Shown in pieces: positions 1,623 to 2,450 of a DNA stretch of 64,000 nucleotides. Position 1 is the first letter of the stretch. Each line of letters begins with the position of its first letter. Under the pieces are notes generated by a model. The model made no database searches, had not been told where the DNA came from, and was given only the letters and a program-made list of their open reading frames with translations. Origin of the DNA: Escherichia phage vB_EcoM_SP1. The stretch lies in sequence record MT682709.1. One strand, written 5' to 3'. The position numbers and the translations under genes are program-made.

Positions 1623-1695
1623 TGGGAATTAGCCAAGTTGGTAAGGCACTGGATTTTGATTCCAGGATGCAAAGGTTCGAGTCCTTTATTCCCAG
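1623..1695 (+). tRNA. tRNA-Gln (anticodon UUG)
   Basis: Acceptor stem TGGGAAT/ATTCCCA, anticodon loop TTTTGAT, T-arm GGTTCGAGTCC. Confidence 0.85.
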
Positions 1696-1696
1696 C

Positions 1697-1783
1697 GCGA
1701 GAATGGTCAAATTGGTAAAGGCACAGCACTTAAAATGCTGCGGAATGATTTCCTTGTGGGTTCGAGTCCCACTTCTCGCACCA
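1697..1783 (+). tRNA. tRNA-Leu (anticodon UAA), class II, CCA encoded
   Basis: Acceptor GCGAGAA/TTCTCGC, anticodon loop CTTAAAA, long variable arm, CCA 1781-1783. Confidence 0.85.
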
Positions 1784-1788
1784 AATTT

Positions 1789-1862
1789 GCGGATATCGTA
1801 TAATGGCATTACCTCAGACTTCCAATCTGATGATGTGAGTTCGATTCTCATTATCCGCTCCA
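1789..1862 (+). tRNA. tRNA-Gly (anticodon UCC)
   Basis: Acceptor GCGGATA/TATCCGC, anticodon loop CTTCCAA, CCA encoded. Confidence 0.85.
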
Positions 1863-1872
1863 ATTTAATTTA

Positions 1873-1946
1873 CTCCGTGTAGCTCAGTTTGGTAGAGCGC
1901 CTGATTTGGGATCAGGAGGTCCAAGGTTCAAATCCTTGTATGGAGA
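1873..1946 (+). tRNA. tRNA-Pro (anticodon UGG)
   Basis: Acceptor CTCCGTG/TATGGAG with G-U pairs, anticodon loop TTTGGGA, T-arm CAAGGTTCAAATCCTTG. Confidence 0.8.
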
Positions 1947-1948
1947 CT

Positions 1949-2038
1949 GGAGGCGTGGCAGAGTGGTTTAATGCACCGGTCTTGAAAACCGGCAGTCGCT
2001 CCGGCGACTCATAGGTTCAAATCCTATCGCCTCCGCCA
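1949..2038 (+). tRNA. tRNA-Ser (anticodon UGA), class II, CCA encoded
   Basis: Acceptor GGAGGCG/CGCCTCC, anticodon loop CTTGAAA, long variable arm. Confidence 0.85.
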
Positions 2039-2043
2039 GTTTT

Positions 2044-2119
2044 GTTGATTTAGCTCAGTAGGTAGAGCACCTCACTTGTAATGAGGACGTCGGCGGTTCG
2101 ATTCCGTCAATCAGCACCA
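2044..2119 (+). tRNA. tRNA-Thr (anticodon UGU)
   Basis: Acceptor GTTGATT/AATCAGC, anticodon loop CTTGTAA, CCA encoded. Confidence 0.85.
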
Positions 2120-2120
2120 A

Positions 2121-2195
2121 GGCCCTGTAGCTGGAAGGTTCAAGCAAGCGACTCATAATCGCCAGATGGTGGTTCAATTCCACCCAGGGCCACCA
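2121..2195 (+). tRNA. tRNA-Ile (anticodon CAU, lysidine type as in T4) or Met
   Basis: Acceptor GGCCCTG/CAGGGCC, anticodon loop CTCATAA, CCA encoded. Confidence 0.75.
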
Positions 2196-2204
2196 AATTA
2201 ATTT

Positions 2205-2291
2205 GGGGAGTTATCCCGTAGAGGTAGCGGTGTGGACTGTAAATCCATTGTCATTGCGACTCGGGTGGTTCGACTCCATCACTCCCCACCA
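2205..2291 (+). tRNA. tRNA-Tyr (anticodon GUA), class II
   Basis: Acceptor GGGGAGT/ACTCCCC, anticodon loop CTGTAAA, long variable arm; architecture resembles E. coli tRNA-Tyr. Confidence 0.75.
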
Positions 2292-2295
2292 ATTT

Positions 2296-2370
2296 GGATG
2301 TGTAGCTCAATGGCAGAGCGATCGCCTGTTAAGCGATTGGTTATAGGTTCGAATCCTATCACGTCCGCCA
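2296..2370 (+). tRNA. tRNA-Asn (anticodon GUU)
   Basis: Acceptor GGATGTG/CACGTCC, anticodon stem ATCGC/GCGAT with loop CTGTTAA, T-arm ATAGGTTCGAATCCTAT. Confidence 0.75.
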
Positions 2371-2374
2371 AATC

Positions 2375-2450
2375 CGAGGCATAGCTCAGAAGGAAGAGCA
2401 AGGACCTTCTAAGTCCTAGGTCGTAGGTTCGATCCCTACTGCCTCGACCA
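2375..2450 (+). tRNA. tRNA-Arg (anticodon UCU)
   Basis: Acceptor CGAGGCA/TGCCTCG, anticodon stem AGGAC/GTCCT with loop CTTCTAA, CCA encoded. Confidence 0.85.

Follow-up and report, generated by a model that had tools for sequence, protein, structure and literature searches.

We analysed a 64,000-nucleotide (nt) stretch of the genome of Escherichia phage vB_EcoM_SP1 (sequence record MT682709.1; henceforth the window), which carries near its start a plus-strand cluster of transfer RNA (tRNA) genes. An earlier reading of this DNA made from its letters alone, which we will refer to as the sequence-only reading, had placed ten tRNA genes at positions 1623-2450, among them tRNA-Tyr (GUA) and tRNA-Asn (GUU). 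Here we describe these genes and their surroundings, compare them with the corresponding regions of other phages and consider what the cluster may do.

Ten tRNA genes and their identities

Using ARAGORN on the whole window, and again on positions 1600-2470 with drawn cloverleaves, we recovered exactly these ten genes in a block whose ends are 1623 and 2450, and detected no further tRNA genes elsewhere in the 64 kb (Table 1). All ten also passed the gathering threshold of the Rfam tRNA family RF00005 (29 bits). Specifically, nine of them scored between 59.3 and 74.1 bits (E-values of 1e-10 to 1e-14), with tRNA-Asn at the top, and tRNA-Tyr lay just above the cut-off (30.2 bits, E = 0.028), so that the Tyr and Asn cloverleaves are both backed by tRNA software, the former marginally in Rfam. 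When the Rfam search was run on E-value, a sub-threshold tRNA-Sec match took the place of tRNA-Tyr; this and the other sub-threshold matches (sX4 and Plastid-ycf2) were dismissed, given that all of them overlie tRNAs. Other than the ten tRNAs, Rfam found no RNA family in the window, group I introns included.

In the ARAGORN drawings each of the ten genes forms a cloverleaf with a 7-bp acceptor stem, a 7-nt anticodon loop with T33 and a T-loop of the form GTTCRANYC. The gaps between genes are 0-10 nt, and the GC content of the block is 49%, compared with 35% for the window. Ten cloverleaves packed in this way into 828 bases, at such a distinct base composition, are far beyond what would be expected by chance. 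A 3' CCA is missing only from tRNA-Gln and tRNA-Pro. With high confidence we assign the segment to the T4-like phages of the genus Tequatrovirus, as their tRNA operon in the RB3-type form: it is free of segB and consists of ten functional tRNA genes, a small open reading frame (ORF), rnaD, rnaC and a terminator. The ten-gene cluster is an already published and very common allele, and hence textbook-level knowledge rather than a new finding.

Table 1. Features of the window in and around the tRNA cluster. All tRNA genes were called by ARAGORN; Rfam scores refer to RF00005; identities to T4 come from pairwise alignments.
Feature	Position	Strand	Rfam score (bits)	Encoded CCA	Identity to T4	Remarks
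Early-type promoter	278-306					sigma-70 scan; upstream of the cluster
Internal-head-protein ORF	343-615					phrog_7673
Internal-head-protein ORF	676-984					phrog_2667
Early-type promoter	996-1024					sigma-70 scan; upstream of the cluster
ORF	1238-1525					at the position of T4 trna.2
Putative MotA-dependent middle promoter	1526-1553	+				ATATGCTTTA box, 12-nt spacer, TATTAT; stretch identical in T4 and Nami
tRNA-Gln (UUG)	1623-1696	+	67.4	no	89%	zero-nt gap to tRNA-Leu
tRNA-Leu (UAA)	1697-1783	+	59.3	yes	100%	class II
tRNA-Gly (UCC)	1789-1862	+	63.3	yes	98.6%	
tRNA-Pro (UGG)	1873-1947	+	66.8	no	100%	
tRNA-Ser (UGA)	1949-2038	+	62.6	yes	100% (body)	class II
tRNA-Thr (UGU)	2044-2119	+	68.8	yes	97.4%	
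CAU-anticodon tRNA	2121-2195	+	59.9	yes	65% (to T4 tRNA-Ile)	tRNA-Met by software; predicted Ile2 type
tRNA-Tyr (GUA)	2205-2291	+	30.2	yes		class II; discriminator A73
tRNA-Asn (GUU)	2296-2370	+	74.1	yes		discriminator G73
Predicted preferred SegB recognition/cleavage site	2346-2372	none				27 bp, GGTTCGAATCCTATCACGTCCGCCAAA; 3' part of tRNA-Asn and 2 nt beyond the ARAGORN gene end
tRNA-Arg (UCU)	2375-2450	+	68.1	yes	70%	
ORF of 351 nt (116 aa)	2467-2817	+				phrog_3355, E = 3e-54, function unknown; between tRNA-Arg and rnaD
rnaD (species 2 stable RNA) homologue	~2814-2928	+				mapped from the T4 annotation by alignment; ends conserved
rnaC (species 1 stable RNA) homologue	2935-3073	+			137/139	
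Intrinsic terminator of the tRNA/rnaD/rnaC unit	about 3124-3152	+				10-pair stem (7 G-C) then TTTTT; conserved in T4 and Nami
ORF	3242-3805					phrog_2280, function unknown

The CAU-anticodon gene is labelled tRNA-Met by ARAGORN and in most GenBank records; the sequence-only reading had called it tRNA-Ile, and our comparisons favour that label. E. coli ileX has exactly the same 15-nt anticodon arm (GCGACTCATAATCGC). The acceptor stem of the CAU tRNA (GGCCCTG, as opposed to GGCTACG in metT) provides the pairs C4-G69 and C5-G68, which Ikeuchi and colleagues reportedly identified in 2005 as the determinants by which TilS tells tRNA-Ile2 from tRNA-Met. Features of the initiator metV (C1 against A72 and a GGG/CCC anticodon stem) are lacking. 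The best matches to the gene in 5,426 E. coli genomes were genes annotated as tRNA-Ile, and the AUA codon was enriched 4.1-fold in the ORFs of the window, which is consistent with tRNA-Ile2 (for this and all later codon comparisons we set the 104 plus-strand ORFs of the window, an early region, against 42 E. coli K-12 genes from a 50-kb sample). An initiator or elongator tRNA-Met was rejected on the comparison of acceptor and anticodon stems. An Ile2-type tRNA, i.e., one that would carry lysidine and read AUA, is thus the better supported assignment, and the routine label of 'tRNA-Met' is corrected accordingly.

The top E. coli match (81.6%) is a tRNA-Ile gene of lambdoid prophages and belongs to ileZ-argN-argO, where a phage-borne tRNA-Ile (CAU) likewise lies beside tRNA-Arg genes; these differ in being genes of temperate phages that sit 3' of the antiterminator gene Q, outside any ten-gene array. 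In the prophage of E. coli WP5-S17-ESBL-10 that holds this closest relative (positions 301-550 of the stretch examined), the tRNA-Ile is followed by two tRNA-Arg genes 3' of Q, meaning that the rare-codon pairing of Ile (CAU) with Arg recurs in an unrelated temperate phage.

We next consider tRNA-Tyr, given its low Rfam score. In the canonical register its D-stem contains one C·C mismatch, but an alternative 3-bp D-stem (CCG/CGG here, CTG/CAG in T5) pairs perfectly if preceded by a linker of 4-5 nt rather than the usual 2 nt. This unusual D-arm accounts for the low score, and also for the failure of ARAGORN to call the tRNA-Tyr copies of phages CC31 and KaOmega. We compared the gene with its homologues in T2, T6, CC31 (Karamvirus), KpV477 (Jiaodavirus), naam and KaOmega (both Vequintavirinae), and T5 and Kenya-K15 (both Demerecviridae). 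As MAFFT placed the D-arm of T5 out of structural register, stem pairs were counted in the nine sequences by anchoring them on the anticodon and T loops, a count that carries no statistical control. The anticodon, variable and D stems all show compensatory change. In the anticodon stem, both strands change together (GTGGA/TCCAT, GCAGA/TCTGT, GTAGA/TCTAT and GCTGA/TCAGT), and most homologues have GTC/GAC as their variable stem; by hand alignment, the variable arm of KpV477 (TGCTCAAAAGGCTCG) can form GC./.GC, with C-G replacing T-A. The variable and T arms are otherwise identical across the homologues, KpV477 being the exception in its variable arm. The copies of T5-like and rV5-like phages thus share with the window not only these two arms but also the odd D-arm; they differ in their acceptor and anticodon stems and lie in other genomic contexts, in unrelated phage families.

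These observations bear on a reading in which tRNA-Tyr, or tRNA-Tyr together with tRNA-Asn, is a non-functional tRNA-like relic that is kept by linkage alone. Such a reading could draw on the 30.2-bit score, the mismatch in the canonical D-stem register and the copies missed by ARAGORN, but we find it extremely improbable: tRNA-Asn has the highest Rfam score of the ten, the discriminators and anticodon loops of both tRNAs agree with those of their E. coli counterparts, and three stems of the tRNA-Tyr homologues carry compensatory changes. Furthermore, the tRNA-Tyr of the window is identical to that of RB3 and matches that of T6 at 85 of 87 positions. The T6 tRNA is visible on northern blots, is active in vivo and rescues infection (PMC13096335), and, according to a note in the GenBank record of T5, conversion of the T5 homologue can yield an effective amber suppressor. 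Judged from its sequence and its relatives, the tRNA-Tyr of the window is a real tRNA gene with an unusual D-arm.

Relation to T4, RB3, T2 and T6 and the SegB site

The sequence-only reading had described T4 as having eight tRNAs, with tRNA-Tyr and tRNA-Asn lacking and the homing endonuclease gene segB inside the cluster. The T4 reference (NC_000866) agrees: its order is Gln, Leu, Gly, Pro, Ser, Thr, Ile, segB and Arg, followed by rnaD and rnaC, with segB (666 nt, encoding a GIY-YIG homing endonuclease) between tRNA-Ile and tRNA-Arg, and it does not show the ten genes of the window. Likewise, the claim that segB is absent held up, as we found no SegB-like sequence in the 64 kb (tblastn with T4 SegB, best E = 1.6). 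The proposal that tRNA-Tyr and tRNA-Asn occupy the interval of segB was right as to position, since both lie between the CAU tRNA and tRNA-Arg, but not as to a clean exchange. The CAU tRNA and tRNA-Arg are themselves divergent alleles, at 65% and 70% identity to those of T4; tRNA-Arg is moreover followed by an additional ORF. The alignments hence indicate that, relative to T4, the whole segment from the CAU tRNA to tRNA-Arg is replaced and an ORF is added, rather than two tRNAs being swapped for segB. (Identities to T4 were computed gene by gene, as a three-way MAFFT alignment mis-aligned segB with the ORF and the tRNA-Arg genes.)

Outside this segment the two phages are alike. The cluster occupies the same site 3' of trna.2, its first six tRNAs are 89-100% identical to those of T4, and homology resumes at rnaD and goes on through rnaC and the terminator. 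T4 differs further in having no ORF after tRNA-Arg and no encoded CCA in tRNA-Ser and tRNA-Ile. As regards tRNA-Ser, the 3' end of the gene (2036-2038) reads GCCA in the window and G-TAA in T4, with CCA also encoded in Nami, T2 and RB3; from its sequence, the tRNA-Ser of the window should need neither 3' trimming nor CCA addition. As regards tRNA-Gln, the differences from T4, T2 and T6 are confined to the anticodon arm (three doubly compensated stem pairs and loop positions 32 and 38), with no change elsewhere in the gene. The anticodon loop is TTTTGAT in the window, RB3 and E. coli glnU, and CTTTGAC in T4, a pattern that looks like an arm swap.

The RB3 cluster (AJ884578) agrees with the window in all ten tRNAs and in their order, with 99.3% identity over the 828-nt block. 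Identity over the block was 99.4-99.5% in pSs-1, Sfk20, PE37, Shinka and BW-1 (99.5% in the first two), the order of the ten tRNAs also recurs in Nami, ECO07P1 and HMD-9, and in 397 phage records a single match spans at least 80% of the block. The tRNA regions of T2L, RB1 and RB3 were described by Brok-Volchanskaya et al. in 2008 (PMC2330249); the arrangement is not unusual. As a discovery it is minor: GenBank entries of the ten-gene array date back to 2005, its description to 2008, and hundreds of sequenced T4-like phages carry it. The number of tRNAs varies among the relatives: T6 has seven (with the order Tyr-segB-Arg), T4 eight (with segB replacing Tyr and Asn), T2 nine (with an ORF in place of Thr and no segB), RB3 and the window ten (no segB) and G29 eleven. 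The additional gene of G29 is a tRNA-His (GUG) between tRNA-Asn and tRNA-Arg (positions 1286-1361 of the stretch examined). Among sequenced T4-like phages, the ten-tRNA arrangement without segB is the majority state, and T4 is the odd one.

Comparison with individual relatives helps to place the window among them. It resembles RB3 and RB1 (AJ884578 and AJ884577; PMC2330249) in the ten tRNAs and their order, in the absence of segB, in the SegB site within tRNA-Asn and in having rnaD and rnaC after the cluster (in the RB3 annotation, too, homology at both ends is the sole basis for recognising rnaD). The ten-gene order lies, as in RB3, between trna.2 and rnaD/rnaC. RB3 differs in that its rnaD follows tRNA-Arg directly, whereas in the window the 351-nt ORF intervenes. 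In this last respect the window resembles T2 (LC348380; T2L, AJ880101), where tRNA-Arg is likewise followed by an ORF of 351 nt (T2_136). T2 also lacks segB, and its CAU, Tyr, Asn and Arg tRNAs are near-identical to those of the window. It differs in lacking tRNA-Thr, in carrying the ORF T2_137 between tRNA-Ser and the CAU tRNA (leaving nine tRNAs) and in the T4-type anticodon arm of its tRNA-Gln. The tRNA-Arg of the window is near-identical to the copies of both RB3 and T2. Given the T2-type ORF after tRNA-Arg, we regard the window as an RB3/T2 mosaic, like Nami and P922, which combine an RB3-type array with such an ORF; HMD-9 has the ten tRNAs and no ORF annotated there. Finally, T6 (AP018814; PMC13096335) shares with the window a tRNA-Tyr with an identical variable arm, including the C48 cleavage position. 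It differs in that segB directly follows tRNA-Tyr, in the absence of Asn, Pro and Ser, in its T4-type CAU tRNA and in its tRNA-Arg, which is probably T4-type as judged by its 75-nt length and its position beside segB. The SegB-driven tandem amplification of tRNA-Tyr in T6 needs segB and is therefore impossible in the window.

The tRNA-Asn of the window is 100% identical to those of T2 and RB3. SegB cleaves preferentially within tRNA-Asn (Brok-Volchanskaya et al. 2008, PMC2330249), and we predict the preferred site in the 3' part of this gene (Table 1). The string GGTTCGAATCCTATCACGTCCGCCAAA occurs exactly in T2 and RB3. It fits the published site (a GGTTCRANTCC core, a CCAR 3' end and G6, A16, G18, A26 and A27), and it differs from its tRNA-Ser counterpart at positions 6, 16, 18, 26 and 27, exactly as reported (PMC2330249). 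In crosses between T4 and T2L, SegB replaces about 1250 bp of T2L that contain tRNA-Met, Tyr, Asn and Arg and two ORFs (PMC2330249). We found an intact Tyr-Asn pair in 395 phage records and a near-full-length segB in 126. Considering the site inside tRNA-Asn, the demonstrated conversion, the intermediate form of T6 and these frequencies, it is most likely that the ten-gene allele is an uninvaded, empty target of SegB and that T4 and T6 are derived. Along with the CAU and Arg alleles next to them, tRNA-Asn (in T6) or both tRNA-Tyr and tRNA-Asn (in T4) would then have been replaced through homing of segB with co-conversion. As a carrier of an empty homing site, vB_EcoM_SP1 would be likely to lose this segment in co-infections with T4- or T6-type phages.

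One could instead suppose that the T4 order is ancestral and that this phage alone has recently gained tRNA-Tyr and tRNA-Asn, by an insertion that displaced segB; the two genes do lie exactly where T4 has segB. We give this next to no credence, since existing evidence already contradicts it: RB3, pSs-1, PE37 and dozens more phages have the block at 99% identity or above, a single match covers at least 80% of it in the 397 records noted above, the preferred SegB site lies inside tRNA-Asn, crosses convert the T2L allele to that of T4, T6 has the intermediate form Tyr-segB-Arg, and the segB state is the rarer of the two. Recent capture of the two genes from the host was also rejected. Using blastn, we found no chromosomal tRNA-Tyr or tRNA-Asn match in the 5,426 E. 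coli genomes, where the matches were limited to a plasmid-borne tRNA-Tyr at 84% and weak matches to tRNA-Lys and tRNA-Val. With no close chromosomal counterpart in E. coli, tRNA-Tyr and tRNA-Asn are best seen as long-standing phage genes in an allele that segB has most likely not invaded.

Possible roles in codon supply and counter-defence

In T4, the tRNAs are made as a polycistronic precursor that is processed by RNase P and 3' exonucleases and completed by a CCA-adding enzyme. By analogy, the genes of the window would be co-transcribed from the early promoters upstream of them and from a probable middle promoter of the MotA type, whose box resembles the MotA-box consensus. Host RNase P, 3' exonucleases and trimming enzymes would cut this precursor into single tRNAs, with the host CCA-adding enzyme completing tRNA-Gln and tRNA-Pro.

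We found that the codons read by the eight T4-type tRNAs (CAA, UUA, GGA, CCA, UCA, ACA, AUA and AGA) are 1.2-6.5 times commoner in the ORFs of the window than in the E. coli sample; these eight tRNAs would thus serve A-ending codons that the phage uses often and E. coli seldom. tRNA-Tyr and tRNA-Asn would add no new decoding capacity, but may raise the supply of amino acids that an AT-rich phage overuses. The three most overused amino acids were Lys (2.0-fold), Tyr (1.76-fold) and Asn (1.46-fold), and the U-ending codons of Tyr and Asn were 2.5-3 times commoner than in the sample, which fits a role in supply. The likely function of the cluster is therefore the provision of tRNAs for an AT-rich genome.

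Several points weigh against our overall interpretation. Lys, the most overused amino acid, has no tRNA in the cluster, meaning that demand alone fails to predict the gene set. The codon comparison is drawn from early-region ORFs rather than late genes, and a 50-kb sample of E. coli stands in for the true host. The score of tRNA-Tyr is marginal and its D-arm non-canonical. Expression, processing and aminoacylation of the tRNAs in vB_EcoM_SP1 are predictions, and the evolutionary direction rests on homing biology and frequencies rather than on a phylogeny.

As published work on T6, T2 and T4 shows, a phage tRNA-Tyr can also buffer infection against defence nucleases that cut the tRNA-Tyr of the host. 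During infection the Septu system EcB88 (PtuAB) cuts E. coli tRNA-Tyr in the variable arm, at C48/A49; extra (overexpressed) T6 tRNA-Tyr rescues infection under Septu, and T2, which has a tRNA-Tyr, is resistant, whereas T4, which has none, is sensitive (PMC13096335). In addition, the tRNA-Tyr of T5 neutralises retron-Eco7 (PMC11555353). The gene of the window is a close relative of these rescuing genes: it retains G46-T47-C48-A49, shares its variable and T arms with T5, and is closest to the T2 allele among the three defence cases (T2, T5 and T6). By analogy with T2 and T6, vB_EcoM_SP1, as a carrier of tRNA-Tyr, would be expected to grow better where the host has Septu or retron-Eco7.

It is thus conceivable that tRNA-Tyr and tRNA-Asn are kept mainly as a counter-defence against tRNA-cutting nucleases, rather than for codon supply, in that they would replace or dilute host tRNAs cut by PtuAB or retron-Eco7 (for Tyr) or by some other nuclease (for Asn). 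The Septu and retron-Eco7 results argue for this, as does the near-identity to T6 with a variable arm common to T6 and T5. So does the tRNA-His of G29: His is underused in the ORFs of the window (0.73-fold), so demand does not explain this gene. However, T6 tRNA-Tyr is itself cleaved by Septu at C48 (PMC13096335), which points to protection by dosage rather than resistance. Furthermore, with Tyr and Asn second and third among the overused amino acids, supply is a sufficient explanation. We therefore hold counter-defence as the main reason for their retention to be a tentative possibility, and the less probable one.

The optional tRNAs of T-even clusters (Tyr-GUA, Asn-GUU and, in relatives such as G29, His-GUG) all have G34-U35 (queuosine) anticodons; colicin E5 cuts Tyr, His, Asn and Asp tRNAs. 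A broader proposal would treat these optional tRNAs as a counter-defence module against nucleases that cut the G34-U35 family, with tRNA-Asn neutralising some tRNA-targeting immune system. We consider this unlikely, as beyond tRNA-Tyr it amounts to no more than a pattern. Our literature search found no published defence that is countered by a phage tRNA-Asn.

Flanking RNAs and open reading frames

The ORF between tRNA-Arg and rnaD had no Pfam match. T2, Nami, G29 and P922 have an equally long ORF at this position, and T4, RB3 and HMD-9 lack it. In the window its stop codon overlaps the 5' end of rnaD. The central ~45 nt of the rnaD homologue are unlike those of T4 or Nami, and the stretch of rnaD and rnaC matched no Rfam family. 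In G29, the corresponding stretch, between the ORF after tRNA-Arg and the terminator, is annotated as a 94-nt 'tRNA-Lys'.

In the window, T4 ipI is replaced and trna.3 is missing. The two internal-head-protein ORFs upstream of the cluster (Table 1; region 331-984) both start with MKTFKEFINEA, which, from its sequence, looks like a capsid-targeting leader. A cassette of promoter and ribosome site, which recurs as repeat families D1, D4 and D5, precedes each of them. Beyond the terminator, the ORF at the end of Table 1 opens with the similar MKTYAEFLTEA. Across the window, 104 of the 107 non-overlapping ORFs of at least 60 codons lie on the plus strand, the three on the minus strand being at 11077-11547, 16607-16822 and 55951-56151.

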